This document shows, piece by piece, positions 1,406-49,362 of a stretch of 64,000 nucleotides of DNA (its first letter is position 1; every line of letters starts with the position of its first letter). The notes beneath the pieces are model-generated. The model had not been told where the DNA came from. It did no database searches and saw only the letters and a program-made list of their open reading frames with translations. Position numbers and translations under genes: made by a program. The DNA comes from Xanthobacteraceae bacterium (GTDB lineage Bacteria; Pseudomonadota; Alphaproteobacteria; Rhizobiales; Xanthobacteraceae), in contig JBAUYI010000342.1 in NCBI GenBank assembly GCA_049584715.1, positions 2,262-66,261 on the forward strand. The letters are read 5' to 3'.

Positions 1406-1430
1406 AACGTGTGGCGACCCGGTCCGTTCC
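1406..1430 (-). promoter_or_regulatory. EcfG/ECF15-type general stress response promoter (GGAAC-N16-CGTT) for DUF892 copy 1
   Basis: Top strand is AACG-tgtggcgacccggtcc-GTTCC. It is conserved in the paralogous locus at 24154..24178. Confidence 0.7.
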
Positions 1431-1630
1431 GCTGCGACCCCGATTACCGCGATGCTGTAGGGAACCGCACGCCGGATGGTGAAAAAGCCGGCGTAGCTTG
1501 CCGCGCGACGCGCGATGATTGTGCGCTGCGATTTGGTTGCCGTGCGGGACCTGCTGTTCCCCTTTACGCCGCGGCGAATGGCGCCGCGCGCAATGGGCCT
1601 AAAGGATAACGGCAGTTTCGTCGGAGTGAC

Positions 1631-1676
1631 TGGTACAGCTGGGTGGACTCGAACCACCGGCCTCTTGATCCACAGT
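1631..1676 (-). repeat. attL-type direct repeat: displaced 3' part (anticodon loop to CCA) of tRNA-His
   Basis: 46/46 identical to 52377..52422 (tggtacagctgggtggactcgaaccaccggcctcttgatccacagt). Confidence 0.9.
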
Positions 1677-1792
1677 TTCAGGGCCTGCCTGTCCTCAGGG
1701 TTCCCTGGGATTCCGAAAGACGCTAATATAAGCCTTATTTCGGGCACTTCTGGTCAGGGAATATTCCGGCAGGTTCCGCGAGTTCCCCTGCC

Positions 1793-1811
1793 GTGGTCCC
1801 GCGGTGGTTCC
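1793..1811 (+). repeat. 19-bp sub-terminal repeat (candidate integrase arm-type site), left copy
   Basis: gtggtcccgcggtggttcc is identical to 52290..52308. The left arm also carries further GGTTCC-like iterations between 1697 and 1790. Confidence 0.55.
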
Positions 1812-1829
1812 TTGAAGGAGGTTTTGGGC

Positions 1830-3134
1830 ATGCGAGGAAAAGCAATCACAAAGCGCAGTGTGGATGCCCTTAGGCCGGCTGACCGCGAGTACTTCGTCTG
1901 GGATCGCGACCTCAAAGGTTTTGGCTTGCGGGTACAGCCGACGGGTGAAAAATCCTACATTGTAAAATACCGTGCAGGCGCCGGCCGGAATGCGCCGACA
2001 CGACGCGTCACGCTGGGACGGGTCGGCACGCTCAGCCCGGATGAAGCCCGCAAGCTGAGCAAGGTCACGCTTGGGTCTGTCGCCCATGGACTTGATCCAG
2101 CGGCCTTGAGGTCGGCGGAACGTCGCGCGGCAACGCTCAAGGAACTCGCGGACTTGTTCCTGTCCGAGCATGTCGAAGCCAAAAGCAAGCCGGCCACGGC
2201 GGTGCACTATCGGGATATTCTGGAACGGATCGTATTGCCCCAACTCGGCACCAGGCAGGCCGAGAAAGTCGCAACGCCGGACCTCGCCCGACTACACGTT
2301 GGCATGAAGCGGCGCCCTTATCTGGCAAACCGCATGTTGGCGGTGGTGGGCAGCCTCTATGCGTTCGCCGGCAAGCGCAAGCTGGTGTCGGCGGGCTTCA
2401 ATCCGGCTCGCGGTATCGACAAATATCCGGAGAAAGGCCGCGAGCGATTTCTGACCGGTGACGAACTTGGCAGGCTCGGCGACGCAATCCGGGAAGCCGA
2501 GACGATTGGACTGCCGTGGACCGTCGACGAGACCAAGCGAACGGCCAAGCACGCGCCAAAGGAGGCAAAACGCCGGACCGTCATCGATCCGTTCGCGGCG
2601 GCCGCGATCCGGCTCCTGATCCTGACCGGTGCCCGGCTGCGCGAAATCCTTAGGCTGGAATGGCCACATGTGGATTTTGAACGCGGCCTGCTTTTGCTGC
2701 CGGACAGTAAGACTGGCGCGAAATCGATTGTCCTGAATGCACCTGCGCTCGCAGTGCTTGCTGGATTGAAACGCGTCGGTACTCACGTCATCGCCGGCCA
2801 GAGCGCTGGCGCGGACGGCGAGAAGCCGCGTGCCGACCTGAACCGACCTTGGCGTTCGATCGCTAAACGGGCCAAGCTCCCTGGCTTGCGCATTCACGAC
2901 TTGCGGCACACCCACGCGAGTTTCGGTGCCGGCGCGGGTCTCGGGTTGCCGATTCTTGGCAGACTGTTGGGCCACGTACGCGCCAGCACCACGCAGCGCT
3001 ACGCACATCTCGATACCGACCCGCTACGCCGTGCATCGGATCATATCGGCGCTCGCCTCGCAGCGGCGTTGGGCGAGCCGAATCCCAAGCCCACGCAGTC
3101 GGCAGTCGTTGCAATCCGCGCCGCGAAATCGTGA
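1830..3134 (+). CDS. int: tyrosine-type site-specific integrase (P4-like, DUF4102 N-terminal arm-binding domain)
   Basis: ATG preceded by GAAGGAGG. N-terminus FVWDRDLKGFGLRVQPTGEKSYIVKYR. C-terminal catalytic residues are in RIHDLRHTHAS ... HVRASTTQRYAHL. Confidence 0.9.
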   Translation: MRGKAITKRSVDALRPADREYFVWDRDLKGFGLRVQPTGEKSYIVKYRAGAGRNAPTRRVTLGRVGTLSPDEARKLSKVTLGSVAHGLDPAALRSAERRAATLKELADLFLSEHVEAKSKPATAVHYRDILERIVLPQLGTRQAEKVATPDLARLHVGMKRRPYLANRMLAVVGSLYAFAGKRKLVSAGFNPARGIDKYPEKGRERFLTGDELGRLGDAIREAETIGLPWTVDETKRTAKHAPKEAKRRTVIDPFAAAAIRLLILTGARLREILRLEWPHVDFERGLLLLPDSKTGAKSIVLNAPALAVLAGLKRVGTHVIAGQSAGADGEKPRADLNRPWRSIAKRAKLPGLRIHDLRHTHASFGAGAGLGLPILGRLLGHVRASTTQRYAHLDTDPLRRASDHIGARLAAALGEPNPKPTQSAVVAIRAAKS

Positions 3135-3161
3135 GATTATGGGCTCCAAGAGCACAAAGCG

Positions 3162-3818
3162 GTGATGAAAACCCGCACCAAGGTCACTGCTGCCGAGGGC
3201 GCAGACTACGAGCTCTTGCTACAAAGGCTTGAAAGAATAGTCGACTCGGCAGCAACGAAATCATTCGGCCCTCTGAATCGAAAAGTTCTCGAGTTATTCG
3301 TCAGCGAAGCAATAATGGTCTACGAGGGCACTAAATTTTTGAATGAGTCTGCTTCGCATTCTACCCTTCATGAGCTTACAGAGCCACTTGCTCGCGTGAT
3401 TAAAATATTAGAGCACGAAGCCAACTACGACAGCGTTTTCGTTGCGTTGGGTGCGCCTGCTATGCTGGCTCTGAGCCCCGATCAAGAGGCTGTTAAAGGG
3501 GCAATAATGCGATACGAATATCTTTTGAACGACCTACATAGCATTGCCCGCGCGGTGCCGCGGCGTCCAGCTAAGCGCCGCAGAGGAAAGCCACCAAAAG
3601 CGAACGATTTATATGCCTTGGTGGATACGCTGGCGACTTACTGGCAGCGTGCGACCGGTAAGCCATTCACGCAATATTGGCATAATGGCAGCCCGGCCGC
3701 CGCCGCTGCGCAGTTTGTCCATGCCATAGTCGGTTTTATCGACCCCGAACGTGTGCGCTCATTGCGGAAGGTGACTGAACGCATCATCGCTGATCGTCGC
3801 TCGACTTCTCATAAATAG
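3162..3818 (+). CDS. hypothetical protein (island accessory, lower-GC)
   Basis: 218-aa ORF with no recognisable motif. It has a basic patch RRPAKRRRGKPPK. Confidence 0.5.
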   Translation: MMKTRTKVTAAEGADYELLLQRLERIVDSAATKSFGPLNRKVLELFVSEAIMVYEGTKFLNESASHSTLHELTEPLARVIKILEHEANYDSVFVALGAPAMLALSPDQEAVKGAIMRYEYLLNDLHSIARAVPRRPAKRRRGKPPKANDLYALVDTLATYWQRATGKPFTQYWHNGSPAAAAAQFVHAIVGFIDPERVRSLRKVTERIIADRRSTSHK

Positions 3819-3928
3819 ATCGTCTCTCGCGAATTACGGGAACTGGATTTTATAGCGGTCGCATCCGAACGAGCCTATTTAGTCCGCTTCATTCCCGGCA
3901 GAACCAGGAATTAGCGGACGGTGACATC

Positions 3929-4186
3929 ATGGCGATTGAGACTGAATATCAGGCGCCGCGGCAATTCGCCCGGACCACCAGCATTCCAACGTCAACGCTG
4001 GCTAAAATGCGAATGCGCGGAGGCGGGCCACCATTCGTCAAGATCGGCCGCAGCGTTCGCTACCCGGTGCGGGCTGGGCTCGAGTGGATGGCCTTACACG
4101 GTCGCGCGAACACCTCGGATGCAGCTGTCGAAAGCCGCTCCGGGAAAAGGCGGCGCACCGCGACGGCGGTAAATGCGGCGGGATGA
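3929..4186 (+). CDS. AlpA/excisionase-family helix-turn-helix DNA-binding protein
   Basis: IPTSTLAKMRMRGGGPPFVKIGRSVRYPVRAGLEWM matches the AlpA/HTH_17 pattern. It lies next to the integrase. Confidence 0.75.
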   Translation: MAIETEYQAPRQFARTTSIPTSTLAKMRMRGGGPPFVKIGRSVRYPVRAGLEWMALHGRANTSDAAVESRSGKRRRTATAVNAAG

Positions 4187-4189
4187 AAG

Positions 4190-4648
4190 TTGGCCCGAAA
4201 AGCGGCGCGCCCCCGACACTGCATCAACAGTGTGGAGGCGCGAGGCGTTGACGAGATTGCGGATCACGTCGACACCATCGCTAACTCTACATCGCAACTG
4301 CTGCAAGCGGCACCTCTTCGCGCCGAGTTGACCGGCGACACATGTTCCGCGGCGGGGCTTAGAGTGTCCGGCTACGCGCCGGTCTTGGCATTGGCTCGCA
4401 TGCTCATCGATGCGGGGCACAATCCAGCAACGCCGCTCAAGGTCTTTCGTGGCGACATGTTGTGCCTCACCGTGCGCGCGATCGGCGAGGCCGCCCGACT
4501 CGCTGTTGAAGATGACCGGCATGGCAGGCCACGGTTCCGACGTTGGCGTGGCAGAAGGTATGGCGCAGGCTCGCCCATCGCGCAGAAAGGGCGGGGTGAG
4601 GGGACGGCTAGCCAAACGCTCCCGAGCAAAGCGCCATCACCTGACTAG
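4190..4648 (+). CDS. hypothetical protein
   Basis: 152-aa ORF with a TTG start, tightly packed between the AlpA-like gene and the next ORF. Confidence 0.4.
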   Translation: MARKAARPRHCINSVEARGVDEIADHVDTIANSTSQLLQAAPLRAELTGDTCSAAGLRVSGYAPVLALARMLIDAGHNPATPLKVFRGDMLCLTVRAIGEAARLAVEDDRHGRPRFRRWRGRRYGAGSPIAQKGRGEGTASQTLPSKAPSPD

Positions 4649-4656
4649 GCTGACCC

Positions 4657-5217
4657 GTGGGCCGAGACAAGCACGAACGAGAACGGCACAAAGAGCGATT
4701 GCCCCCATTTGTGCCGGTCCTCATATCCACGCTCGATCAACGGGCTTGGCGTGCCATGTCGCTGGGCGCGCGGTCGCTCTACATCGCACTCAAGCGAAGG
4801 TGCAGTTATAAGAATCCCAATAACGGGCGGCTGTTCCTCCCACAGCGAAAAGCCGCGAAGGAACTCGGTTCGCACCATAACCAGATAGCGCGTTGGTTCC
4901 GCGAGTTGCAGCACTTTGGCTTTATCGAGATGACGACGCCCGGTTTCTTGGGCATCGAGGGCAAAGGACAATCACCGCGCTGGCGGCTTACCGAAATTGG
5001 CTACATGCGAGATCCACCAACACAGGATTACGCCCGTTGGGACGGAACGCCGTTCGTCGACAAAACAAAATCCCGTGCGAGAAAACCTGCACGGAGTGTG
5101 CCGGAAAATAGGCACGCCACCGTGCCGGAATGCCATCCACCGCATGATGTAACCGTGCAGGAAAAGCCGCACAAAGGAAACGGGATGCACCGTGCTACAA
5201 AGCCCGCACAAATCTAG
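4657..5217 (+). CDS. hypothetical protein, probable winged-helix/HTH protein of the mobile module
   Basis: 186-aa ORF. The segment KAAKELGSHHNQIARWFRELQHFGFI looks like an HTH. Confidence 0.45.
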   Translation: MGRDKHERERHKERLPPFVPVLISTLDQRAWRAMSLGARSLYIALKRRCSYKNPNNGRLFLPQRKAAKELGSHHNQIARWFRELQHFGFIEMTTPGFLGIEGKGQSPRWRLTEIGYMRDPPTQDYARWDGTPFVDKTKSRARKPARSVPENRHATVPECHPPHDVTVQEKPHKGNGMHRATKPAQI

Positions 5218-5615
5218 ATTGCCACTCCTGCTCTACAAAGCGGACGCCCGTTAGGCGGAGCGCGTGCGTAGCGCAGCCTAAAGCGGAGCGTAGCGCGCGC
5301 GGTCCGGTTCTACGCACGACGGCGCGGCTGGAACGGCGAGATCCACGCCTGTGCGCATGATCGCAAATATCGACCGATCACGTCGACTTTGCCCGCGCCA
5401 AAGCATATTATCGCCCTCGGGACAGCTCCAAAGTTGTCCCGGGGCGTGAGAACCCCAATCAAGGCGGCACTCAGTGCGGCCGCAAACGCACTCCTCGACC
5501 CTGTGGTCGGGGAGGCGTGCGCGTATGTCCGAGGATCGAAAGGTCTAAAGGCGCACGCGGCCTTCCCTTGGTTGGCTTCTCAACTCCCCGATCACCAGGG
5601 CGGGGAGACGAAGCC

Positions 5616-6404
5616 ATGCGCGTTCTGTCGGCGCTCGTGCTTTTTATAGTTATGATTTTGGTGGTGGCGGCGCTCAACGGCGGCAATTCCTCATCCTCCG
5701 TCGTCTCGGTGGAGAACCAGACGCTGCTCTCGGAGGATGGCGTCAACGATGCTGATTGGCAAAGGGTGAAAAATCGGAGCGGTGACGTGGCTGCGATCAT
5801 CGATCTGAAGACCGTGACCCGCGACCGCGACGGTAACGCCCACGCCCGGCTGTGCCTCATCAAGGACGGGGCGTGCCCCAAGGGATACCGGATGCGGTGG
5901 TACTTCGACTGCCGCGATCACTCTTACTCGTGGGTCGACACCGACGTTCTCCCGCAATTCCAGCACGAGATGAAGCGCGTCGAGCCGGGTTCCGTCGCGG
6001 ACCAACTCGCGGCCTTGGCCTGCGCGTCCGGCAATACTCAGCCGCCCACCGAAGCGGCAAAGAAAGCGCCCAAATGGCAGGCGGTCCCGTACCCCAACAT
6101 GTACGACAACACCCGCTTGGCGTTCGATGCCAACTCAGTCGTCGTCACCAACGACGAGAAGGGCAACGTCAACGGCGTCGATGTGACGGCCCGCGTCATC
6201 GCGGGCGATGTCTCGATCAACGGCAAATACATGGTTTTGAGCTTCGACTGCGCCAGCCACTATAGGATAAATCATTCGTATCCGCTCGCGCTGGATTCAC
6301 CCACGCAGGAAAGCTTCATCGGCAACATTGCCTGCGGTGCGGCCCGGTGCGAGATTCTGCGGCGTCAGGAAGGAAGGCCCGTCTGTAACGCCGCAGCAAA
6401 CTAG
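5616..6404 (+). CDS. membrane-anchored/secreted hypothetical protein
   Basis: Internal ATG after GGGGAG. N-terminal hydrophobic helix MRVLSALVLFIVMILVVAAL. Several paired Cys residues. Confidence 0.5.
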   Translation: MRVLSALVLFIVMILVVAALNGGNSSSSVVSVENQTLLSEDGVNDADWQRVKNRSGDVAAIIDLKTVTRDRDGNAHARLCLIKDGACPKGYRMRWYFDCRDHSYSWVDTDVLPQFQHEMKRVEPGSVADQLAALACASGNTQPPTEAAKKAPKWQAVPYPNMYDNTRLAFDANSVVVTNDEKGNVNGVDVTARVIAGDVSINGKYMVLSFDCASHYRINHSYPLALDSPTQESFIGNIACGAARCEILRRQEGRPVCNAAAN

Positions 6405-6622
6405 TTTTTGATGGCGTGTTTCTGATCAAAAATCCCTGTCGATCGCGAGTTCGTGCGTCTCTCGGATCAGGCAGAGATGGTATGGCGAAGGATTTTATGA
6501 AGATGGCCAATCGGGACGCTCGTCTTACTGCGGGCATTAACCAGCAGCTTGTTTTGATGAGCAGCTTTGCTATTTTGCGGGAATTTGCCAAATGATTTCG
6601 ACAATTCTGGCCGGAGTAGCAA

Positions 6623-9929: not shown

Positions 9930-9954
9930 AACACCGGAGCAATCTGGCAGTTCC
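9930..9954 (-). promoter_or_regulatory. near-consensus EcfG-type promoter (GGAAC-N16-TGTT) for PRC-barrel gene
   Basis: Top strand is AACA-N16-GTTCC. The -10 lies 35 nt upstream of the ATG, the same spacing as at ppa and the cupin gene. Confidence 0.35.
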
Positions 9955-13280: not shown

Positions 13281-13808
13281 TCATTTTGCAACGCATCCTT
13301 GCGGACCAGAGTTCCCGGGGGCGTGGATGAGTTGAAGGGCTTCGGTCAGGGCATCCGCCATGGCTTCGTCCAAAATCTTGGCGCGGCCGATCGGCCCGTA
13401 GTGCCGCTCGGTGTGCCGCGAAGGAAAGCCTTCGCGGGCTGCTGCGATGCACACAAAGCCTACAGGGTTATGGTCTTCATCGGGCTTCGGGCCGGCTACA
13501 CCCGTGATGGCGAGGGCGATGTTCGCAGGCGAGCGGCGCAAGGCTCCCTCAGCCATGGCGACCGCGGTATCGACGCAGACCGCCCCGCGTTCGCGTAAAA
13601 GCTCAAGCGAAACTCCAAGCAGCTTGGTTTTGGCTTCCTTCGTGTAGGTGACGAATCCGCCGTGCAAGTGCTCCCCGGCGCCGGGGACTTCGGACAGCAC
13701 ATTTGAGAGTTTGCCGGCGGTGCAGGATTCGGCGGTGACGAGCGAGAGACCTTGCATCCGCGCCGCTTCGATCACCTGTTTGGCGAGGGCTGCAAGCTTC
13801 GCGTTCAT
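13281..13808 (-). CDS. CinA-family protein / nicotinamide-nucleotide amidohydrolase (PncC-like)
   Basis: Starts MNAKLAAL. LVTAESCTAGKLS...GGFVTYT..AK...LGV is the CinA C-domain signature. ATGA overlap with the upstream gene. Confidence 0.8.
   Translation of the reverse strand: MNAKLAALAKQVIEAARMQGLSLVTAESCTAGKLSNVLSEVPGAGEHLHGGFVTYTKEAKTKLLGVSLELLRERGAVCVDTAVAMAEGALRRSPANIALAITGVAGPKPDEDHNPVGFVCIAAAREGFPSRHTERHYGPIGRAKILDEAMADALTEALQLIHAPGNSGPQGCVAK
13290..13315 (-). promoter_or_regulatory. EcfG-type promoter (GGAAC-N17-CGTT) for ppa, embedded in the 3' end of the CinA-like gene
   Basis: Top strand is AACG-catccttgcggaccaga-GTTCC. The -10 lies 35 nt from the ppa ATG. Confidence 0.65.
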
Positions 13809-15372: not shown

Positions 15373-15398
15373 AACAGGGACGGAATGGCTTTGGTTCC
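15373..15398 (-). promoter_or_regulatory. near-consensus EcfG-type promoter (GGAAC-N17-TGTT) for the cupin-membrane-CinA operon
   Basis: Top strand is AACA-N17-GTTCC. The -10 lies 36 nt from the ATG. Confidence 0.35.
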
Positions 15399-15489: not shown

Positions 15490-15514
15490 GGAACCCACAG
15501 CCGGTGTGAGCATT
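15490..15514 (+). promoter_or_regulatory. marginal EcfG-like motif (GGAAC-N16-CATT) upstream of the small secreted protein
   Basis: One mismatch in the -10. The -10 lies 38 nt from the ATG at 15552. Confidence 0.25.
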
Positions 15515-16843: not shown

Positions 16844-16868
16844 GGAACGAGGTGGATCGCAATTCGTT
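16844..16868 (+). promoter_or_regulatory. orphan consensus EcfG-type promoter (GGAAC-N16-CGTT) with no convincing downstream protein gene
   Basis: ggaac-gaggtggatcgcaatt-cgtt. It points into the 3' end of the convergent SDR operon. Only a 21-codon ORF (16904..16969) follows. Confidence 0.5.
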
Positions 16869-18494: not shown

Positions 18495-18519
18495 AACCTC
18501 TGTAATCGCAATCGGTTGC
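18495..18519 (-). promoter_or_regulatory. one-mismatch EcfG-like motif (GCAAC-N16-GGTT) upstream of the Lys-rich protein/SDR operon
   Basis: Top strand is AACC-N16-GTTGC, 53 nt from the ATG. Confidence 0.3.
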
Positions 18520-20439: not shown

Positions 20440-20464
20440 GGAACCGGCGTCCAGTCACCCTGTT
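20440..20464 (+). promoter_or_regulatory. near-consensus EcfG-like motif (GGAAC-N16-TGTT) upstream of the Cys-rich flavoprotein
   Basis: ggaac-cggcgtccagtcaccc-tgtt, about 144 nt from the ATG. Confidence 0.3.
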
Positions 20465-24153: not shown

Positions 24154-24178
24154 AACGTGTGGCGACCACGTCCGTTCC
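24154..24178 (-). promoter_or_regulatory. EcfG-type promoter (GGAAC-N16-CGTT) for DUF892 copy 2
   Basis: Top strand is AACG-tgtggcgaccacgtcc-GTTCC. Confidence 0.7.
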
Positions 24179-25250: not shown

Positions 25251-25275
25251 AACCAACAAATCAGGTTCCGGTTCC
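25251..25275 (-). promoter_or_regulatory. EcfG-type promoter (GGAAC-N16-GGTT) for membrane protein 24192..25145
   Basis: Top strand is AACC-aacaaatcaggttccg-GTTCC. Confidence 0.55.
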
Positions 25276-25681: not shown

Positions 25682-25707
25682 GGAACCTTCGCTTTCGCTG
25701 AGGCGTT
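25682..25707 (+). promoter_or_regulatory. EcfG-type promoter (GGAAC-N17-CGTT) for the three-subunit FAD dehydrogenase operon
   Basis: ggaac-cttcgctttcgctgagg-cgtt, 49 nt upstream of the ATG at 25756. Confidence 0.6.
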
Positions 25708-29789: not shown

Positions 29790-29814
29790 AACCGAAGCGC
29801 GGACCGTGTGTTCC
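29790..29814 (-). promoter_or_regulatory. EcfG-type promoter (GGAAC-N16-GGTT) for the 51-aa membrane protein
   Basis: Top strand is AACC-gaagcgcggaccgtgt-GTTCC. The -10 lies 31 nt from the ATG. Confidence 0.55.
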
Positions 29815-29840: not shown

Positions 29841-29865
29841 GGAACCATTGCGGCAAGCGCGGGTT
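29841..29865 (+). promoter_or_regulatory. EcfG-type promoter (GGAAC-N16-GGTT) upstream of actA (ACIII/oxidase cluster)
   Basis: ggaac-cattgcggcaagcgcg-ggtt, 88 nt upstream of the ATG at 29953. It is divergent from the site at 29790. Confidence 0.5.
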
Positions 29866-42480: not shown

Positions 42481-42506
42481 GGAACTGCGGACCACCGGTT
42501 CGCGTT
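42481..42506 (+). promoter_or_regulatory. EcfG-type promoter (GGAAC-N17-CGTT) upstream of hypothetical ORF 42526..42837
   Basis: ggaac-tgcggaccaccggttcg-cgtt. The -35 is the right arm of GTTCC-N6-GGAAC. Confidence 0.55.
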
Positions 42507-42525: not shown

Positions 42526-42837
42526 GTGAGTCCGATGCCATTGCGATCGCGGAAAAAGTCCAAAAGCCCCTTGCGGGATTTGGCGGATTTCCGCGCCAGC
42601 CTCTGGGAAACACTAGCAAAGAACGCGAAAGGCCTAACCGGCTTACAGGTCGTCCGAGCTCTCCGCGAGGTCTCGGACGATATTTATCATGCCGGAATCG
42701 ACGCCGCTTACACGACGACCAAAGTCCGCGATCCGCAAAACCTCGCCGATGCTTGGGATCTGACCTGGCTGACGGCTCTCAGCGTCAAGCTACTGCATCT
42801 TCAGAGGCCAAGATCGCACCATAAGCCGCCGCAGTAG
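42526..42837 (+). CDS. hypothetical protein (start may be the ATG at 42535)
   Basis: 103-aa ORF directly downstream of a consensus stress promoter. No SD and no motif were found. Confidence 0.4.
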   Translation: MSPMPLRSRKKSKSPLRDLADFRASLWETLAKNAKGLTGLQVVRALREVSDDIYHAGIDAAYTTTKVRDPQNLADAWDLTWLTALSVKLLHLQRPRSHHKPPQ

Positions 42838-42873: not shown

Positions 42874-42898
42874 GGAACCGCGATTGCGCGGCGCCGTT
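42874..42898 (+). promoter_or_regulatory. EcfG-type promoter (GGAAC-N16-CGTT) upstream of the PaoABC-like operon
   Basis: ggaac-cgcgattgcgcggcgc-cgtt, 77 nt from the ATG at 42975. It is preceded by an inverted GTTCC. Confidence 0.6.
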
Positions 42899-42974
42899 AG
42901 AGTCTTGCAATGCGCCCCGATGGGGACGCGCAATGATTTGGCGAAAGCCAACGGTTCATGTCCGAGGATGTCTG

Positions 42975-43507: not shown

Positions 43508-43509
43508 CC

Positions 43510-44508
43510 ATGCAAACCTTCATCTACGAGCGGGCGACTAATCCTGCCGATGCCGTTGCGGCGGCTTCGCGCCAAAACAACGCGCACTATCTTGCGGGCG
43601 GCACGACGCTGTTCGATCTGATGAAGCTCGACGTGATGCGGCCGCAGACCGTCGTCGACATCAATGTGCTCGGCGGCACGGCGCATGGTCGCATCGAGCT
43701 TGGCCGCAGCGGCTTGCGGCTTGGCGCGCTGGTGCGCATGGCCGATGCCGCGGACCATCCGCAGATCAGGGAGCAATATCCGGTCATCGCGCAGTCGCTG
43801 CAACTTGCGGCGAGCCAGCAAATCCGCAACATGGCCAGCCTCGGCGGCAATGTGTTGCAACGCACGCGCTGCCCCTATTTCCGCGATGTCGCCTATGCGG
43901 CCTGCAACAAACGCGAGCCGGGCTCGGGCTGTGCCGCCATCGGCGGGTTCAACCGGGCCCAAGCGGTGCTCGGCACCAGCGACGACTGCATCGCGGCCTA
44001 TGCGGGGGACTTCGCCCAGGCTTTGATTGCGCTCGATGCGGCTGTCGAGATCGCCGGTGCCGAAGGAACCCGCACGATCCCGTTCATAGCCCTGCACCGC
44101 AAGCCAGGCGAAACCCCGGACAAGGAGACGGCGTTGCTGCCGGGCGAGTTGATCGTGTCGTTCCTGGTGCCAGCTGCGGCGTGGACGCGCCGGTCTGTCT
44201 ATCTGAAGGTCCGCGACCGCGAATCCTACGAGTTTGCGCTCGCTTCAGCGGCGGTCGCGCTCGATCAGCAAAATGGCACTGTGCGCAATGCGCGTATCGC
44301 GCTCGGCGGCGTGGCCACGGTGCCATGGCGTGCGACCGAAGCGGAGGCGTTGCTTTCCGGCAAGCCGATCAATGAACAGAACGCAAAGATTGCCGCGGAT
44401 GCCGCATTCGCGGCCGCCAAAGGCTACGGCCATAACGATTTCAAGATCGAGCTCGGCAAGCGCACGTTGCGCCGCGCGCTGCAACAGGCAGCGGCGCTGG
44501 AGATATAA
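43510..44508 (+). CDS. PaoB-like FAD-binding medium subunit (CO dehydrogenase flavoprotein fold)
   Basis: Starts MQTFIYERA. LAGGTTLFDLMK and the Cys-rich insert RCPYFRD...ACNKREPGSGCAA. Confidence 0.8.
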   Translation: MQTFIYERATNPADAVAAASRQNNAHYLAGGTTLFDLMKLDVMRPQTVVDINVLGGTAHGRIELGRSGLRLGALVRMADAADHPQIREQYPVIAQSLQLAASQQIRNMASLGGNVLQRTRCPYFRDVAYAACNKREPGSGCAAIGGFNRAQAVLGTSDDCIAAYAGDFAQALIALDAAVEIAGAEGTRTIPFIALHRKPGETPDKETALLPGELIVSFLVPAAAWTRRSVYLKVRDRESYEFALASAAVALDQQNGTVRNARIALGGVATVPWRATEAEALLSGKPINEQNAKIAADAAFAAAKGYGHNDFKIELGKRTLRRALQQAAALEI

Positions 44509-44509
44509 A

Positions 44510-46792
44510 ATGACAAATGCAGCGGCACCCGAGCCGAAAGCCAATATGGGTGCGCCGGCCCCACGCTATGATGCGCGGTTGAAGGTTACCGGCGAGGCCC
44601 GTTTCGCTTCCGATATGGCGGTCGCCAATCCCGCTTACGCGGTCCTGGTCACCAGCGCGATCGCGAAGGGCCAGATCGCGAGCATCGAACTCGATCAAGC
44701 GCGCGCCGTGCCGGGAGTCCTGGACATCCTGACCCAGGACAACACGTCCGAGCTCAAACCGGTCAAGTTTGGCGACGGCTCCGCGACCTCGATCCAGAAG
44801 CTTGGCCCCGAGATTTTTCACAGCGGTCAGATCATCGCTGTGGTGATTGCCGACACGTTCGAGGCCGCGAGTGAAGCTGCCAACAATGTGAAAGTAAATT
44901 ACGACGAACAGGCCCCCGCCGCGACATTCGGCGCGCCGGGACTGCAGGAGGAGGACGCCACCAAAGTATCGCAGCAGCACAAGCATCTGCCGCAAGCCGG
45001 TGACGCGGAAAGTGCGATCGCCGGCGCCGACGTTACCATCGACGTCGAATACGAAACGCCGACCCAGCATCACAATCCGATGGAGCTGTTCACGACAACC
45101 TGCGCGTGGACCGGCGACCGCCTGACCGTGTACGAGCCGAGCCAGTTCGTCTACGGCCTCAAGAACGGCGTCGCGCAGCGGCTCGGCATAGAGCCTGAAA
45201 AAGTCGATGTCATCAGCCCCTACGTGGGCGGCGCGTTCGGCTCAAAAGGCACGATGACGCCCCGCACGGCCATGATCGCTCTGGCTGCGAAAAGGCTGAA
45301 CCGGCCGGTGAAGCTTGTCGCCACCCGCGCCCAGGGTTTTACGGTGTCAACCTACCGCGCCGAAACGCGACACCACATCCGTCTTGGCGCCAGACGCGAC
45401 GGCAAGCTCGTCGGTTATAGCCACGACGGCTGGGAAATCAGCTCGCGGCCCGATCCTTATGTCGTGGCGGGCGTGGAAGACAGCGCGCAGCTCTATGCCT
45501 TCGGCGCGGTCGCGACCAAGGTCAACGTCGTCCACGCCGACCGCGGCACGCCGGGCTTCATGCGTTCGCCGCCGGTGGTGCCTTACATCTATGCGCTGGA
45601 GAGCGCGATGGATGAAATGGCCGTTAAACTGAACATAGACCCGATCGAATTTCGTCGGGTCAACGACACCATGAAAAGCCCGGTCGACGGCAAGCCATAT
45701 TCGAGCCGCTCGTTGATGACGTGCTACGACCAGGCCGCCGCGGCGTTCGGCTGGAAAGAGCGCAATCCCACGCCCGGCTCGATGCGCGACGGCGAATGGC
45801 TGGTCGGTTTCGGCTGTGCCACCGCGCTCTATCCCACCCATATCGGGCCCGCCGCAGCGCGTGTTCGCATGAAACCGAATGGCGAGGTCCGCGTGCAGAT
45901 CGCCGCCCACGAGATCGGCAACGGCGTCTACACGGTGCTTGCCCAGATGGCGGCGGAAAGGCTCGGCGTCGACTTGGCGTCAGTCACGGTGGAGGTCGGC
46001 GATTCCCGCCTGCCGCCGGCGCCGGTCGCGGGCGGCTCCAATACGACGGCAAGCTCCTGCAGCGCGGTGATGAAAACCTGCGATGTCATTCGCGACAAGC
46101 TGTTCCGTGCCGCGGTCACGGCCAATGACGGACCGCTCGCCGGCCGCGACACCGACGGGCTGACGCTCAAAGACGGTCGGATTTCTGCACCCGATGGCGC
46201 CACGGAAAATCTCCCGGATGTGTTCAAGCGTCTCGGCGTCAGCACGATCGAGGAGTATGCGGAGTTCGTACCCAAGGGCCTGAAGCCGGATGCCGTGCAA
46301 GACCTCTACGCCGGCAAGCTCACCATGACCGGCGGTCCGCACGGCGAAAAAGTCATGTACGCAACGGGCGCCGAGTTCGTCGAGGTCCGCGTCCATGCCT
46401 TGACGCGCGAAATCCGTGTGCCGCGCATCGTTGGCGCCTTTGCCGCCGGCCGCCTGATGAACACTCGCACGGTACACAGCCAGCTCATGGGCGGCATGAT
46501 CTGGGGCATCAGTTCGGCGCTGCACGAAGCGACCGAAATCGACACAGCACGGGCGCGCTACGTCAACGACAATCTCGCCGACTATATGGTGCCGGTGAAC
46601 GCCGACGTTCAACAAGTCGAAGTGATTCTGGTGCCGGAAGTCGATCACGACGTGAATCCCGCCGGCGTCAAAGGCCTAGGCGAACTTGCCAACGTCGGCA
46701 CCGCGGCGGCGATCGCTAATGCGGTCTATCACGCCACCGGCACACGCATTCGCAAACTGCCGATCCGTATCGAGAAATTGCTGACCGCTTAG
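44510..46792 (+). CDS. PaoC-like molybdopterin-binding large subunit (xanthine dehydrogenase family)
   Basis: Starts MTNAAAPEP. 760 aa with KVTGEARFASD and GGAFGSK motifs. Confidence 0.85.
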   Translation: MTNAAAPEPKANMGAPAPRYDARLKVTGEARFASDMAVANPAYAVLVTSAIAKGQIASIELDQARAVPGVLDILTQDNTSELKPVKFGDGSATSIQKLGPEIFHSGQIIAVVIADTFEAASEAANNVKVNYDEQAPAATFGAPGLQEEDATKVSQQHKHLPQAGDAESAIAGADVTIDVEYETPTQHHNPMELFTTTCAWTGDRLTVYEPSQFVYGLKNGVAQRLGIEPEKVDVISPYVGGAFGSKGTMTPRTAMIALAAKRLNRPVKLVATRAQGFTVSTYRAETRHHIRLGARRDGKLVGYSHDGWEISSRPDPYVVAGVEDSAQLYAFGAVATKVNVVHADRGTPGFMRSPPVVPYIYALESAMDEMAVKLNIDPIEFRRVNDTMKSPVDGKPYSSRSLMTCYDQAAAAFGWKERNPTPGSMRDGEWLVGFGCATALYPTHIGPAAARVRMKPNGEVRVQIAAHEIGNGVYTVLAQMAAERLGVDLASVTVEVGDSRLPPAPVAGGSNTTASSCSAVMKTCDVIRDKLFRAAVTANDGPLAGRDTDGLTLKDGRISAPDGATENLPDVFKRLGVSTIEEYAEFVPKGLKPDAVQDLYAGKLTMTGGPHGEKVMYATGAEFVEVRVHALTREIRVPRIVGAFAAGRLMNTRTVHSQLMGGMIWGISSALHEATEIDTARARYVNDNLADYMVPVNADVQQVEVILVPEVDHDVNPAGVKGLGELANVGTAAAIANAVYHATGTRIRKLPIRIEKLLTA

Positions 46793-46833: not shown

Positions 46834-47532
46834 ATGACTGAAATTGTCGCTTGGTAGCCGATTGCGCTGCGTCTTTTCCTGACCCTCGTTGCCGGCGTCC
46901 TCATCGGCTTCAACCGCGGCGAACATGGCGAGCCGGCAGGACTGCGCACGACATTGCTGGTTGGTCTGGCAGCGTCGATAGCGATGCTGCAGGCCAATCT
47001 GCTGTTGGGCACCGCCGGACGGTCGCCGGATTCCTACGTCATCCTGGACCTGATGCGGCTGCCACTGGGCATTTTGACCGGGGTCGGCTTCATCGGCGCG
47101 GGCGCCATATTCCGGCAGAACGATATGCTGCGTGGCGTTACCACGGCGGCGACGCTTTGGTTCGTCACGGTGATCGGGCTTTGCTTCGGCGGCGGGCAGA
47201 TCGGTCTTGGCATCGCCGGCACGGCCATTGGCGTCGGCGTGCTGTGGGGCCTGAAGATCCTCGAACGGCATCTGGAAACAGAGAAAAACGCGTTGTTGGT
47301 GATAATTGCGACCCCCGAGGGACCGGCTGCCGATGTTATTCGGGCCCAGCTGCAAGGCGCAGGCTTTCGGATCGCCAAGTTCAGCGAAGCCCGCGTCAAT
47401 ACCGGAGACCGTCACCACGCCATGCGCTGTAGCCTGCGCTGGCGCGCTCTGCCGCACGACACCGCGGTGCCGAGCATCATTTCCGCAATGGCCAAAGCCG
47501 ACGGTGTCTTGCAGCTACAATGGAAGCCTTGA
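46834..47532 (+). pseudogene. MgtC/SapB-family membrane protein with an in-frame TAG at codon 8 (possible pseudogene or non-canonical start)
   Basis: ATG ACT GAA ATT GTC GCT TGG TAG CCG ATT GCG CTG... reads MTEIVAW*PIALRLFLTLVAGVLIGFNRGEHGEPAGLRTTLLV. The family N-terminus continues straight through the stop. The first canonical start after it (TTG at 46954) would remove TM1. Confidence 0.5.
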
Positions 47533-47567: not shown

Positions 47568-47732
47568 TCAAATCCTGCCCATCAGGATCAGGATCAATAG
47601 AATGACGATCACCACGCCAAGGCCGCCGCCGCCGTAGTAACCGGTTCCGTAGAACGGGCCACCGCCGAAGCCGCTGAAGCCACCGAGAAGGATGATGATC
47701 AGTATGATGAGAATGATGGTTCCGACCGACAC
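47568..47732 (-). CDS. DUF3309 family small membrane protein (54 aa; not in ORF track)
   Basis: GTG start after GAGGAA. Product is MSVGTIILIILIIILLGGFSGFGGGPFYGTGYYGGGGLGVVIVILLILILMGRI. Confidence 0.75.
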   Translation of the reverse strand: MSVGTIILIILIIILLGGFSGFGGGPFYGTGYYGGGGLGVVIVILLILILMGRI

Positions 47733-47844: not shown

Positions 47845-47869
47845 AACATTTCCTGCGTCGATTCGTTCC
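47845..47869 (-). promoter_or_regulatory. near-consensus EcfG-like motif (GGAAC-N16-TGTT) upstream of DUF3309
   Basis: Top strand is AACA-tttcctgcgtcgattc-GTTCC. Confidence 0.3.
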
Positions 47870-47889: not shown

Positions 47890-47914
47890 GGCACAAATGG
47901 TTCATTCATGCGTT
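47890..47914 (+). promoter_or_regulatory. one-mismatch EcfG-like motif (GGCAC-N16-CGTT) upstream of the secreted PRC-barrel gene
   Basis: The -10 lies 39 nt from the ATG at 47953. It is divergent from the site at 47845. Confidence 0.3.
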
Positions 47915-47952: not shown

Positions 47953-48366
47953 ATGAAGAGAAGTCTGACCGTATTCGCCGCAGGCGTACTGCTCGTCGGC
48001 AGCGCCGCTTTTGCGGTGTCGGCCGCGAGGGCCGATGTGATGACCAGCGTCCCAAGCAGCAGTCTCACCGTGACCGACTGGTACAAGCAGGACGTCTACG
48101 ATCAATCCAACACCAAGATCGGGCAGATCATGGACGTGCTGGTCGGCCAGGACGGACAAGTGAGCGCGCTGATCGTCGGCGTCGGCGGCTTTCTTGGCGC
48201 CGGCGAAAAGGACGTTGCCGTCAGCTTCAACACCGTGAAGGCAGCGATGAAGGACAACAAGATCTACCTGACGATGAATACCACCAAGGATGCGCTCAAA
48301 TCCGCGCCGGGCTTCAAATACGACCGCGACAAGACGGCGTGGGTGCCGGATAGCAGTTCGAGATAA
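47953..48366 (+). CDS. secreted PRC-barrel domain protein
   Basis: GGAGG before the ATG, a signal peptide ending AARA, and KIGQIMDVLVGQDGQVSALIVGVGGFLGAGEKDVAV. Confidence 0.85.
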   Translation: MKRSLTVFAAGVLLVGSAAFAVSAARADVMTSVPSSSLTVTDWYKQDVYDQSNTKIGQIMDVLVGQDGQVSALIVGVGGFLGAGEKDVAVSFNTVKAAMKDNKIYLTMNTTKDALKSAPGFKYDRDKTAWVPDSSSR

Positions 48367-48402
48367 CGGCGCAAGCGAATCTCTGAGCAAAGGCGTATCC
48401 AG

Positions 48403-48431
48403 GAAAAGCCTCGGCCAAGCCGAGGCTTTTC
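48403..48431. terminator. bidirectional Rho-independent terminator
   Basis: GAAAAGCCTCGGC-caa-GCCGAGGCTTTTC sits between convergent genes, with a U-tract on both strands. Confidence 0.8.
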
Positions 48432-48492
48432 GCTTCATGATGCCGCAGCATCGACAGGGTCGCGGCGAAGTCCGGCACCGGAAGTCCGCATC

Positions 48493-48906
48493 TTAGCCGA
48501 TGTAGGCGACCCGTTGCGGAATTGCGGCGTCGTCGGTCGTCTTTGGCTGCACCGGCAACTGCAGGACCGTGGCCTGCTGCCCCTCGCGCAACGCCGTCAG
48601 CAGCACGACCTGTCCATTCGGAAATTCCAGCGCGTCGTGATGCGCCGCCAATCGGTCCTTGTCGACCTGTCGAAAAATCGCTGTCTTGTGGTTGATCACC
48701 TTGGGACGCCAGGGTAGCAGGCCGGTCCGATCGCACCGAACTTCGTCGGCAAAGGCCAGCTCGGTTCCGGGCAGGACGCAAACGGCAACGTCGGCGTCTT
48801 GCAACGCGCAGAAACCACGCGTGCCAGTGCCGAAATTGCGCGTGATGAGCTTGTCGCCGACACTTGCGGGTTGGGATCGGATGCTGGAAAGACTGTAGTC
48901 GCACAT
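48493..48906 (-). CDS. conserved hypothetical protein (137 aa)
   Basis: ATG-start ORF MCDYSLSSIRS... No motif was recognised. Confidence 0.5.
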   Translation of the reverse strand: MCDYSLSSIRSQPASVGDKLITRNFGTGTRGFCALQDADVAVCVLPGTELAFADEVRCDRTGLLPWRPKVINHKTAIFRQVDKDRLAAHHDALEFPNGQVVLLTALREGQQATVLQLPVQPKTTDDAAIPQRVAYIG

Positions 48907-48954
48907 TGGGGCACTCTCCGGTTTTGCAGCCCCGCAACGTGAACGGGCCGGAGT

Positions 48955-49296
48955 TTATTTTGTTTCACCGTGACGTTGGCTCGTTGCAAACAAATTTGCG
49001 CTCTTAGTGTCGCCGAAACAGTACGCCGACCTTTCCGCAGCGCAGCAGTAACAGGTGAAGCCGCAGAACACGCTTCGGCTTCCCATTGCCCGGACATAGT
49101 GCTGTCCGATCTCTGCACTGCACTGCGCGCAATAGGCCTGGGTCTTAAGATTTGCGTCGTTGACCAGGACGTATCGCGGGACGGATGAATCAGATGAATC
49201 AAATGTGTCGCGATTGGACGCGACAGGAATGTCAGACGATGAGGGAGAACCCGCCGTTGACGCTGAAGGCCAAATAATCAAAGAACCGTCGACCAT
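48955..49296 (-). CDS. Cys-rich hypothetical protein (113 aa from the internal ATG)
   Basis: The ATG at 49296 has GGAG 8 nt upstream. C-terminal YCAQCSAEIG...FCGFTCYCC looks like a zinc ribbon. The stress promoter lies 41 nt upstream. Confidence 0.4.
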   Translation of the reverse strand: MVDGSLIIWPSASTAGSPSSSDIPVASNRDTFDSSDSSVPRYVLVNDANLKTQAYCAQCSAEIGQHYVRAMGSRSVFCGFTCYCCAAERSAYCFGDTKSANLFATSQRHGETK

Positions 49297-49336
49297 GGCA
49301 GGGCTCCCTGAGCCTCCACCCGTACGCACGCGACTC

Positions 49337-49362
49337 AACGCTGGCGATGTTGCACAGGTTCC
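49337..49362 (-). promoter_or_regulatory. EcfG-type promoter (GGAAC-N17-CGTT) for the Cys-rich protein/137-aa ORF pair
   Basis: Top strand is AACG-ctggcgatgttgcacag-GTTCC. Confidence 0.55.

Follow-up and report, generated by a model that had tools for sequence, protein, structure and literature searches.

Does the 64,000-nt stretch analysed here (the window), from a soil member of a Bradyrhizobium-related family (the Xanthobacteraceae of GTDB), carry a concentrated set of general stress response (GSR) promoters, and does this make it a stress-regulon island? A first-pass annotation had reported 11 strict matches to GGAAC-N16/17-SGTT, all of which we recovered at the same positions and on the same strands (Table 1). 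Its estimate of about 2 chance strict matches per 64 kb on both strands was close to the mean of 1.73 (maximum 6) obtained in 100 dinucleotide shuffles of the whole window, none of which reached 11. Non-coding DNA makes up approximately 20% of the window and holds 10 of the 11 matches; when only the intergenic segments were shuffled (1000 times), the mean was 0.39 and the maximum 5, with no shuffle reaching 10, and coding DNA was not enriched (1 match vs 1.28 expected). The excess depends on the length of the spacer, as spacers of N12-13, N14-15, N18-19 and N20-21 yielded 4, 2, 0 and 3 matches, respectively, and reversed or permuted boxes yielded 0-3. GGAAC by itself is over-represented between genes (63 of 148 copies in ~20% of the sequence), as would be seen if the excess arose by chance or from the composition of GC-rich intergenic DNA. 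The shuffles, the spacing controls and the conservation of the boxes in up to 80 genomes (see below) refute this explanation, the probability of which we regard as negligible.

The strict sites are also positioned like promoters. Ten of them had been described as lying 20-110 nt upstream of a co-oriented ORF, which is the case for 8 of the 11 (1406, 13290, 24154, 25251, 25682, 29790, 29841 and 42874; confident genes, 30-105 nt, against a baseline of 23% for random intergenic positions, binomial P = 7e-4), and does not extend to 42481, 16844 and 49337, where the ORF is doubtful or missing. The ORF downstream of 42481 has a weak coding score, no match in Pfam or NCBIfam and no homologue in the related loci examined. 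A transcript from 16844, with only a dubious ORF downstream, would run antisense into the small17007/SDR operon, and the site at 49337 (fold z = -0.78), near a terminator-like hairpin (49225-49206(-)), possibly gives rise to a short non-coding transcript. Site 13290 falls within the 3′ end of CinA, the gene upstream of it.

Table 1 Promoter-like sites, genes they precede and landmarks of the integrative element in the window
Feature	Coordinates	Strand	Context
Strict site GGAAC-N16-CGTT	1406..1430	-	69 nt upstream of DUF892 gene 833-1336(-)
Strict site GGAAC-N17-CGTT	13290..13315	-	34 nt upstream of inorganic pyrophosphatase gene 12689-13255(-)
Strict site	16844..16868	+	No credible + strand gene downstream
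Strict site	24154..24178	-	79 nt upstream of DUF892 gene 23571-24074(-), followed by TPP (pyruvate-oxidase-like) enzyme gene 21711-23510(-)
Strict site GGAAC-N16-GGTT	25251..25275	-	105 nt upstream of 317-aa membrane protein gene 24192-25145(-)
Strict site	25682..25707	+	48 nt upstream of three-gene membrane-bound dehydrogenase operon
Strict site	29790..29814	-	30 nt upstream of 51-aa gene 29604-29759(-)
Strict site	29841..29865	+	87 nt upstream of actA 29953-30606; heads gene string 29953-42450(+): ACIII (ActA-F), SCO-like, COX2/1/3, FNT
Strict site	42481..42506	+	28 nt upstream of doubtful 100-aa ORF 42535-42837(+)
Strict site	42874..42898	+	69 nt upstream of 2Fe-2S subunit gene (ATG 42968) of three-subunit molybdenum oxidoreductase
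Strict site	49337..49362	-	No credible ORF downstream, only a dubious one
One-mismatch candidate GGAAC-N16-TGTT	9930..9954	-	34 nt upstream of PRC-barrel gene (ATG 9895)
One-mismatch candidate GGAAC-N17-TGTT	15373..15398	-	41 nt upstream of cupin, DUF6328, CinA operon 13281-15331(-)
One-mismatch candidate GGAAC-N16-CATT	15490..15514	+	37 nt upstream of small secreted-protein gene 15552-15764(+)
One-mismatch site GCAAC-N16-GGTT	18495..18519	-	52 nt upstream of operon 17007-18442(-): DUF6496, SDR (YdaD-like), 50-aa gene
One-mismatch candidate GGAAC-N16-TGTT	20440..20464	+	143 nt (long) upstream of FMN-reductase-domain gene 20608-21657(+)
One-mismatch candidate GGAAC-N16-TGTT	47845..47869	-	112 nt upstream of DUF3309 gene 47568-47732(-)
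One-mismatch site GGCAC-N16-CGTT	47890..47914	+	38 nt upstream of PRC-barrel gene 47953-48366(+)
Extra one-mismatch candidate GAAAC-N16-CGTT	48942..48966	-	35 nt upstream of 137-aa ORF 48493-48906(-)
Dehydrogenase operon	25756-26478; 26528-28306; 28320-29561	+	Gluconate_2-dh3; GMC flavoprotein; cytochrome c
Mo-oxidoreductase genes, then MgtC	42968-46792; 46954-47532	+	PaoA/B/C-like; MgtC
Left (distal) att repeat	1631..1676	.	46-bp exact copy of tRNA-His 3′ end; matches 52377-52422
P4-type tyrosine integrase	1860..3134	+	Pfam Phage_integrase + Arm-DNA-bind_3
Intact tRNA-His (GUG)	52377..52453	-	ARAGORN; Rfam tRNA 74.9 bits

We compared the upstream regions of orthologous genes from up to 80 related genomes. 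Strict sites were present in 19 of 20 orthologues of the DUF892 gene behind site 24154 (with both boxes conserved in the alignment), in 12 of 13 orthologues of the 317-aa membrane protein, whose gene start agrees with the metagenome gene call, and in 17 of 31 orthologues of the 51-aa gene. Six of 8 loci had a strict site ahead of ActA, as did all 4 additional lineages, among them the cultured Bradyrhizobium sp. ORS 111 (10/12 altogether). Among orthologues of the dehydrogenase operon, 49 of 79 had a strict and 58 of 79 a relaxed site, at a median of 44 nt from the start, with 30 of 79 lacking the strict motif; the orthologous Mo-oxidoreductase operon of the related genome L045 (77-86% identical) also has a strict site upstream. 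No strict sites were found upstream of 9 operon-internal control genes or of the ActB-F and CoxI controls. In unbiased alignments, the GGAAC and CGTT columns were ~70-99% conserved vs 10-40% in their surroundings, and the boxes ahead of the orthologues are under purifying selection, of which the operon-internal controls gave no sign. Dozens of related genomes retain the signature in front of the same genes, so the promoters look real. Strict sites 13290, 42481, 16844 and 49337 and most one-mismatch sites are without orthologue support.

Two other explanations bear on the same data. Sites 1406 and 24154 are not independent occurrences because they belong to homologous gene-plus-promoter copies (86.6% identical DNA over 673 nt), and duplication, or a dispersed repeat element containing the motif, might be the source of the whole excess. 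This is scarcely plausible, as the spacers and flanks of the remaining nine sites are unrelated in sequence, no extended flanking homology shared among the sites was seen, dropping one paralogous copy leaves 9 intergenic sites vs 0.39 expected, and in the orthologues the spacers are scrambled and the boxes persist. The boxes could instead be half-sites of an operator for a dimeric transcription factor, given that GAACG and CGTTC are mutually reverse-complementary and that some sites match in both orientations (16844(+)/16846(-) and 25251(-)/25249(+) in the window, 9077(+)/9079(-) in the related locus L003). An operator is nonetheless very improbable: the symmetric positions are not kept in the orthologues, in which the bases after GGAAC and after CGTT vary freely, no symmetric counterpart exists for the first G of GGAAC, and all 8 sites beside confident genes are co-oriented and at promoter-like distances, neither of which a symmetric operator needs.

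In addition to the strict promoter sites, the first-pass annotation listed seven one-mismatch sites. All of them exist as described and stand as candidates, with clear orthologue support for 47890 (PRC_2) alone; the candidate at 48942 had been absent from that list. The one-mismatch class as such is enriched (31 intergenic matches vs 11.0 ± 3.5 expected), and its placement near genes is not significant (10 of 28 well placed, P = 0.09). A one-mismatch site occurs in 9 of 11 PRC_2 orthologues, in 8 of these 9 as an invariant CGTT 33-46 nt from the start combined with a weak -35 box (GGCAC, GGGAC or GGAGC). DUF6496 orthologues have a strict site ≤260 nt upstream in 5 of 12 cases, 3 of which are at 61-69 nt. 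CATT -10 boxes, as at 15490, are known among the EcfG targets of S. melonis (PMC6599016).

Which sigma factor would recognize these promoters? The motif of the window matches the published sigma-EcfG consensus of R. etli, GGAAC-N16-CGTT (PMC3892343), and that of S. melonis, GGAAC-N17-20-GTT, which is enriched ≤100 bp from CDS starts and for which 72 B. diazoefficiens EcfG targets served as the seed (PMC6599016). We infer that EcfG is the sigma factor and that the genes served would be induced by stress. Conceivably, the promoters are real and conserved and are read by another ECF sigma factor of the lineage, which we consider unlikely. A -35 box resembling GGAAC is found with many ECF sigma factors and is common to several ECF groups. 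Moreover, PMC3420878 gives 17 ECF sigma factors for Bradyrhizobium, and DUF1328 orthologues bear a related element, GGAACTTTT, with a different spacing (15-nt spacer), which hints that GGAAC-type promoters in the locus fall into more than one class. What speaks for EcfG over such a relative is the combination of two boxes, N16-17 and a CGTT -10 that constitutes the published signature in both Rhizobium and Sphingomonas, the seeding of the S. melonis motif with B. diazoefficiens targets, and the GSR-type character of the genes served and of the Ku, LigD and ligase neighbours found elsewhere.

The cargo of the island comprises ~40 kb and ~21 transcription units, of which at least 7 (~25 kb) begin with the canonical GGAAC-N16/17-(C/G)GTT putative sigma-EcfG (ECF15) promoter and another 2-8 with weaker versions. 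Pfam confirmed the gene labels of the first-pass annotation. Stress-type products (DUF892/YciF, PRC-barrel, DUF3309, DUF6496, DUF1328, YdaD-like SDR, cupin, CinA and pyrophosphatase) stand beside periplasmic or membrane dehydrogenases (the GMC/cytochrome c enzyme and a Pao/Cox-type Mo-enzyme) and a complete alternative complex III plus aa3 oxidase chain. We take DUF892, PRC-barrel, DUF3309, the YdaD-like SDR and the CoxSML-like enzyme to be GSR-type families, and the description of the served genes as classic stress-regulon members is borne out by their belonging to typical GSR families. Members that had been singled out as unexpected are not anomalous: the Pao-like Mo-oxidoreductase has a precedent in the CoxSML homologue of S. 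melonis, which is reported to be EcfG-dependent there alongside PRC-barrel, Ku and small secreted proteins (PMC6599016), and the ACIII and GMC-dehydrogenase promoters recur as conserved features throughout the family. Promoter type and gene set are both of known kinds.

The window carries a genuine tRNA-His integrative element of 50.7 kb (1677-52376), inserted at the 3′ end of tRNA-His and bounded on the right by the 3′ 46 nt of this gene (52377-52422). All strict sites but one had been assigned to the island, and indeed 1406 alone lies outside, to the left of the 46-bp repeat. The integrase begins 229 nt inside the left repeat; soil metagenome contigs encode integrases 80-88% identical at the same distance from att-like partial tRNA-His sequences, and the same att site is also used by related integrases whose cargo is unrelated. 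The backbone (~8 kb) consists of the integrase, unknown genes and a UvrD-like helicase, the GC content is about 0.60 in the island vs 0.65 in the right flank, and no conjugation machinery was found among the annotated island genes. The island is presumably mobile at present.

Strict-motif density in the island is 12.6 per 64 kb, about 6x the 2.2 per 64 kb counted in the outer flanks of 52 related genomes (612 kb altogether, from regions no more than 10 kb away from a GSR cluster), where wrong-spacing controls gave 0.6-1.7. The reading as a stress-regulon island is partly supported. The clustering is not island-specific. Related genomes keep the same promoter-plus-gene modules, in other orders, in equally dense chromosomal clusters with no tRNA within the stretch examined, for instance in L045, where a 758-kb contig has 11 sites within 21.8 kb. 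This module mosaic was seen in L045, L041, L002, L003 and L108-L115, and in other genomes the modules are adjoined by Ku, LigD and ligase, which are classic GSR genes as well.

PhyR-NepR-EcfG is an established partner switch, and the ecfG-nepR-phyR locus of the host is absent from the window. Stress-activated kinases would phosphorylate PhyR, PhyR~P would sequester NepR and free EcfG, and free EcfG would guide RNA polymerase to the -35/-10 boxes of the cargo, itself a mosaic made up of promoter-plus-gene modules. We consider it likely that the locus is a stress-promoter island, in which EcfG-promoter modules form the mosaic cargo of a tRNA-His element and are switched together. EcfG and its promoter signature are conserved throughout the class, which would keep each module connected to the regulon wherever it is inserted, and the single stress sigma factor of the host would turn on the entire cargo at once.

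Strict sites, i.e. matches to GGAAC-N16/17-(C/G)GTT, occur 11 times in the window, and our pattern search of both strands recovered all 11 sites of the first-pass annotation at the same coordinates and on the same strands. Dinucleotide-preserving shuffles of the whole window yielded 1.73 matches on average and never more than 6; the earlier estimate was about two by chance. Ten of the sites lie in non-coding DNA, which makes up ~20% of the window; shuffling the intergenic sequence only (n = 1000) gave 0.39 expected matches and at most 5, and coding DNA holds a single match vs 1.28 expected. Control spacings of N12-13, N14-15, N18-19 and N20-21 returned 4, 2, 0 and 3 matches, respectively, and reversed or permuted boxes returned 0-3. 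The excess over the shuffles, the intergenic bias and the loss at other spacings together show that the signal is real, intergenic and spacing-dependent.

For the placement of the sites we used a gene map from a self-trained codon model, checked against Pfam and one independent metagenome gene call, because gene calling from GC3 alone was too crude for the island, the 50.7-kb integrative element at tRNA-His, whose GC3 is lower. A confident, co-oriented gene starts 30-105 nt downstream of 8 of the 11 strict sites, compared with 23% for a random intergenic position and strand (P = 7e-4). The earlier claim of ten gene-linked sites thus stands for these eight but not for 42481, which is followed only by a 100-aa ORF that scores weakly as coding sequence and matches no family, nor for 16844 and 49337, for which no credible downstream gene was found, the overlapping ORFs having no Pfam or NCBIfam match.

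Features of the window discussed in the text. Strict sites and one-mismatch sites are named by their start coordinate; distances run from the site to the start of the gene.
Position	Strand	Feature	Distance (nt)	Gene or content
101-301		Gene in left flank		DUF3606
490-514		Motif in left flank		GGAAC-N16-AGTT
833-1474		Gene-plus-promoter copy outside island		DUF892
1406		Strict site	69	DUF892
1631-1676		Left 46-bp repeat
1677-52376		Island
1860-3134		P4-type integrase		Phage_integrase, Arm-DNA-bind_3
3162-7186		Backbone ORFs
11085-12087	+	Four small ORFs		45-94 aa
13290		Strict site	34	pyrophosphatase
16844	+	Strict site, orphan
16844-16870	-	Motif overlapping the strict site		TGAAC-N16-CGTT
23557-24221		Gene-plus-promoter copy inside island		DUF892
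24154		Strict site	79	DUF892
25146-25250	-	Leader with conserved block		317-aa membrane protein
25251	-	Strict site	105	317-aa membrane protein
25365-25390	+	Degenerate copy of DUF1328 element
25461-25634		Gene		DUF1328
25682		Strict site	48	Gluconate_2-dh3 / GMC / cytochrome c operon
25756-29561	+	Dehydrogenase operon		Gluconate_2-dh3, GMC flavoprotein, cytochrome c
29790		Strict site	30	51-aa gene
29841		Strict site	87	actA
37301-37326	+	One-mismatch element in 47-nt gap		GCAAC-N17-CGTT
42481		Strict site		100-aa ORF
42874		Strict site	69	PaoA-like 2Fe-2S subunit
47890		One-mismatch site (GGCAC...CGTT)		PRC_2
47953-48366	+	PRC-barrel gene		PRC_2
48942	-	One-mismatch candidate
49195-49362	-	Possible short non-coding RNA
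49225-49206	-	Weak terminator-like hairpin
49337	-	Strict site, orphan
52377-52422		Right 46-bp repeat
53776-56541, 62860-63935	+, -	Genes in right flank		PAS-HisKA histidine kinase, two tandem single-domain response regulators

About 0.4 strict matches are expected by chance in the intergenic DNA. A transcript from 16844 would run antisense into the operon of the DUF6496, SDR and 50-aa genes; this strict site is overlapped by a related motif on the opposite strand. Downstream of 49337, at ~110 nt, lies a weak terminator-like hairpin, and the region may give rise to a short EcfG-dependent non-coding RNA comparable to ReC64 of R. etli, for which a TSS has been mapped downstream of the consensus motif (PMC3892343). 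For the two orphan sites we found no Rfam family and no homologues in the fetched loci, and the fold z-score of -0.78 is not unusual. GsrN of C. crescentus is another EcfG-dependent non-coding RNA. Orphan EcfG-type promoters lacking a downstream ORF resemble ReC64 and GsrN, which could explain both sites, but unlike these RNAs the window's orphan sites come without sequence or structural support.

The seven one-mismatch sites that had been proposed as additional, equally positioned promoters are all present, but the placement of the class is not significantly above random. Intergenic one-mismatch matches number 31 against 11.0 +/- 3.5 expected, and 10 of 28 are well placed (P = 0.09); we therefore treat these sites as candidates, not as findings. 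A further well-placed candidate beyond the seven is 48942. The element at 37301, between the genes of ACIII (alternative complex III, ActA-F) and the SCO-like/COX2 genes, may drive the oxidase half of this operon as an internal promoter. Two one-mismatch matches, at 11655 and 11901, sit among four small ORFs of GC 0.56 that have no Pfam match.

We further explored the conservation of the motif by searching GTDB species genomes with the GMC flavoprotein, which gave 80 loci (1.5 Mb), mostly from soil 'Xanthobacteraceae' MAGs at 77-93% protein identity. Orthologues of the window genes were placed by tblastn, and a strict site was scored if it lay on the gene's strand and no more than 260 nt before it. 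Such a site precedes 19/20 DUF892 orthologues, 12/13 of the 317-aa membrane protein, 6/8 of ActA, 17/31 of the 51-aa gene and 5/12 of DUF6496; for the dehydrogenase operon the count is 49/79, rising to 58/79 when one mismatch type is allowed, at a median distance of 44 nt to the start. The control genes in the same orthologue scan (GMC, cytochrome c subunit, ActB-F, CoxI, PaoB and PaoC) had no upstream strict sites. An ActA homologue search added four further actA lineages, three of which, among them the cultured Bradyrhizobium sp. ORS 111, have the strict site 56-74 nt upstream and the fourth at 282 nt, so that 10 of 12 actA genes are preceded by one in total.

The spacers of orthologous strict sites show essentially no mutual similarity. 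In MAFFT alignments that took in all upstream regions, motif-bearing or not, GGAAC is ~80-99% and CGTT 70-99% conserved before the dehydrogenase operon (80 sequences), compared with 10-40% for the surroundings; the footprints of the DUF892 and membrane-protein genes are comparable, while those of ActA (9 sequences) and the 51-aa gene are less clear. The weak site before PRC_2 has kept its position: in eight orthologues CGTT is invariant and lies 33-46 nt before the start. Hence the boxes are kept while spacer and flanks diverge at six strict promoters and one weak one, a pattern of the kind that purifying selection on a two-box promoter produces. This footprint test covers the sites other than 13290, 42481, 16844, 49337 and most one-mismatch sites.

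Two further conserved elements were noticed in the same upstream regions. The leader between 25251 and the 317-aa gene contains a ~55-nt block, CACAACGGGAACCGCGGCAATTGGATGGCAAATA..., whose conservation across 13 orthologous loci, at 80-99%, goes well beyond the needs of a promoter; it could be a leader peptide (there is an in-frame ATG at 25226) or a regulatory RNA element. DUF1328 orthologues share a conserved GGAACTTTT...C(A/G)TT with a 15-nt spacer 60-70 nt before the start, of which the window's DUF1328 gene has a degenerate copy; this may be a shorter-spacer EcfG promoter or the site of a different ECF sigma factor.

Which sigma factor reads the strict sites is suggested by both boxes and the spacer, which equal the published EcfG consensus. 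In R. etli this is GGAAC-N16-CGTT, carried by 19 of 56 transcription units downregulated in an ecfG1 mutant (PMC3892343). The S. melonis motif, GGAAC-N17-20-GTT, for which 72 EcfG targets of B. diazoefficiens served as the seed, is concentrated within 100 bp of CDS starts (PMC6599016), and the B. diazoefficiens regulon is reported to comprise 'more than 100 genes' (PMC8092242). According to Pfam, the genes served in the window belong to the same kinds of family as the top S. melonis targets, which are PRC-barrel, Ku, small secreted proteins, general stress protein 26 and a three-subunit CoxSML-type Mo-enzyme (PMC6599016). In other genomes the ACIII operon has DUF892, ATP-dependent ligase, Ku/LigD, PRC-barrel, pyrophosphatase, MgtC and TPP-enzyme genes as neighbours. 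EcfG-type (ECF15) regulons are also known through C. crescentus SigT and S. meliloti RpoE2. Since other ECF sigma factors likewise have a GGAAC -35 box, one of them might read the sites instead, but the exact match to the EcfG consensus and the match of the served families to EcfG targets make this improbable. A symmetric operator (GAACG/CGTTC) in place of a promoter is also unlikely, as the symmetric positions are not conserved and every gene-linked site is co-oriented with its gene. We infer that the sigma factor is EcfG. The ecfG-nepR-phyR locus is absent from the window; the host presumably encodes PhyR-NepR-EcfG, given that the module has been characterised in Bradyrhizobium (PMC8092242) and that the R. 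etli study describes it as conserved class-wide in Alphaproteobacteria (PMC3892343). By analogy with this well-established system, the promoters would quite probably act in the same manner.

The island carrying most of these sites is bounded by an exact 46-bp direct repeat corresponding to the 3' 46 nt of tRNA-His, with the integrase starting 229 nt inside the left copy, and its GC of ~0.60 compares with 0.65 in the right flank. Integrases with 80-88% identity occur in soil metagenome contigs, where they are equally far from an att-like partial tRNA-His, yet these contigs share only the first backbone gene (g3162), and their remaining cargo is unrelated and not motif-rich (0-3 strict sites; one in the five contigs of 84% identity), which argues that this integrase family does not generally carry general stress response (GSR) cargo. 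A plasmid search with the 23.5-30 kb region matched only the dehydrogenase operon, at 64-69% identity. Neither relaxase, coupling protein and type IV secretion genes nor sigma-factor, NepR or PhyR domains were found among the Pfam-scanned island genes. Four scanned backbone ORFs had no Pfam match, the ORFs at 3921-4648 lying outside the scan; as the unannotated backbone spans only ~4 kb, a T4SS cannot fit. We considered whether the element is an ICE and rejected this because conjugation genes were not found among the scanned island genes; it is a non-conjugative integrative island.

The two DUF892 gene-plus-promoter copies, one on each side of the left repeat, share 86.6% DNA identity. A recent duplication was rejected since their divergence matches that seen among orthologues from other genomes; the copies are related but differ in origin. 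The 1.6-kb left flank, with a GC of 0.57, a DUF3606 gene and a near-match to the motif, may itself derive from an earlier insertion at tRNA-His. On the right chromosomal flank, a PAS-HisKA histidine kinase and two tandem single-domain response regulators are encoded. In other alphaproteobacteria, single-domain regulators such as SdrG and MrrA act as inputs to the GSR phosphorelay. A 4.3-kb metagenome contig (L001, ENA ERZ25039482 contig_5055) corresponds to ~24.0-28.3 kb of the window and encodes an identical GMC flavoprotein; its DNA is ~99% identical in the 141-nt stretch compared, so the same or a nearly identical strain is present in that sample. The ACIII loci L112-L115 stem from samples of the same series (ERZ250394xx, ERZ250395xx).

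The island has 12.6 strict sites per 64 kb. As background we used related genomes, a proxy for the host's own: 612 kb from 52 genomes, lying >4 kb away from the dehydrogenase operon, contain 2.2 strict sites per 64 kb (0.6-1.7 for wrong-spacing controls). The ~six-fold enrichment over the flanks of related genomes agrees with the first-pass description of a stress-regulon island, but dense clustering is not peculiar to this island. In MAG MFD10064.bin.1.12 (L045; CAVOUR010000002.1, 97-119 kb), 11 strict sites occur within 21.8 kb (1-21776) of a 758-kb contig, a stretch in which no tRNA was found. Its genes (PaoABC, PRC_2, DUF6496, the membrane protein, DUF1328, the dehydrogenase operon, the 51-aa gene and DUF892) form modules that correspond to three separate parts of the island in a changed order. 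Another locus (L041) has 8 strict sites, one (L002) has the local gene order of the island, and in a third (L003) the ACIII operon is inverted and has its own promoter. Because the modules recur elsewhere in a different order, the cargo is best described as a mosaic of promoter-plus-gene modules reshuffling in the family, and the island has captured one such assembly. No synteny with the left cargo (SDR, ligase, FMN reductases, TPP enzyme) was found among the fetched loci. In Bradyrhizobium sp. ORS 111 (CP120701.1:1547063-1567716), three strict sites lie within 20 kb, 145 nt before an SDR gene, 52 nt before a TPP-enzyme/GMC operon and 56 nt before actA; as the strain is cultured, it is tractable for testing EcfG control of ACIII.

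The individual sites resemble EcfG promoters in their identical -35 (GGAAC) and -10 (CGTT) boxes, the 16-17 nt spacer and a location no further than ~100 nt from the CDS start (PMC3892343, PMC6599016), and the targets, which include PRC-barrel, small secreted or membrane proteins, a CoxSML-type Mo-enzyme and stress-type SDR and DUF proteins, resemble those of EcfG regulons. Unlike in known EcfG regulons, 7 gene-linked strict sites and up to ~17 candidates are packed into 50 kb, most of the window's sites are on a tRNA-integrated island, and the set includes the operons of ACIII plus aa3 oxidase and of the GMC/cytochrome c dehydrogenase. The duplicated tRNA 3' end, the integrase with an Arm-binding domain beside the repeat, the lower GC and the differing cargo of relatives are typical of P4-type tRNA islands. 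In contrast to the usual tRNA 'fitness' islands, the cargo genes do not form a set for catabolism, symbiosis, virulence or resistance; most of the cargo seems to be made up of units under a single sigma factor of the host, and no regulator was found among the scanned island genes. The closest published concept is ICE3 of Sphingopyxis granuli TFA, which a December 2025 preprint calls a 'stress-response ICE' (bioRxiv 10.64898/2025.12.11.693706). Both are alphaproteobacterial integrative elements at a tRNA site with direct repeats and stress-linked cargo, the link here being a promoter signature. ICE3, however, has 213 genes, is conjugative, and encodes a T4SS and its own sigma-70-family factor; its stress link comes from RNA-seq (47 of 213 genes changing), and an EcfG promoter analysis is not reported (bioRxiv 10.64898/2025.12.11.693706). 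The island, at 50.7 kb, differs in that conjugation genes were not found among its annotated genes.

EcfG promoters, the PhyR-NepR-EcfG switch, the gene families involved and tRNA-integrated islands are well known, and the known GSR mechanism is left unchanged by these results. What seems new is how very densely EcfG-type promoters are packed locally, that the same modules recur in the family as rearranged superclusters, and that an EcfG-type promoter is conserved before the ACIII plus aa3 oxidase and the GMC-dehydrogenase operons; among open-access papers and bioRxiv we found no published link of EcfG with ACIII or with genomic islands. The interpretation as a stress-regulon island is largely supported, with corrections. 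If the promoters are EcfG-dependent, they provide a compact comparative definition of the GSR regulon for uncultured soil relatives of Bradyrhizobium, and the two-box motif combined with orthologue footprinting would find GSR genes in MAGs that lack expression data. The ACIII plus aa3 oxidase operon and the GMC/cytochrome c dehydrogenase would then join the regulon as conserved members, pointing to a stress-specific respiratory branch. The island would also be a concrete case of horizontally mobile cargo that can do without its own regulator, as a class-wide conserved sigma factor reads its promoters; this bears on how transferred genes join the regulation of a new host.

Tentatively, we propose that a large part of the EcfG regulon in this Bradyrhizobium-related family consists of self-contained promoter-plus-gene modules forming a rearrangeable supercluster, which would include a dedicated respiratory branch of periplasmic dehydrogenases, ACIII and aa3 oxidase. 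A tRNA-His integrative island could take up this supercluster whole and would become a transferable regulon block, needing no own regulator since every alphaproteobacterial recipient would already have EcfG. If this is true, stress tolerance could spread horizontally, already connected to the regulation of the recipient, and respiration through ACIII would serve under stress or in dormancy.
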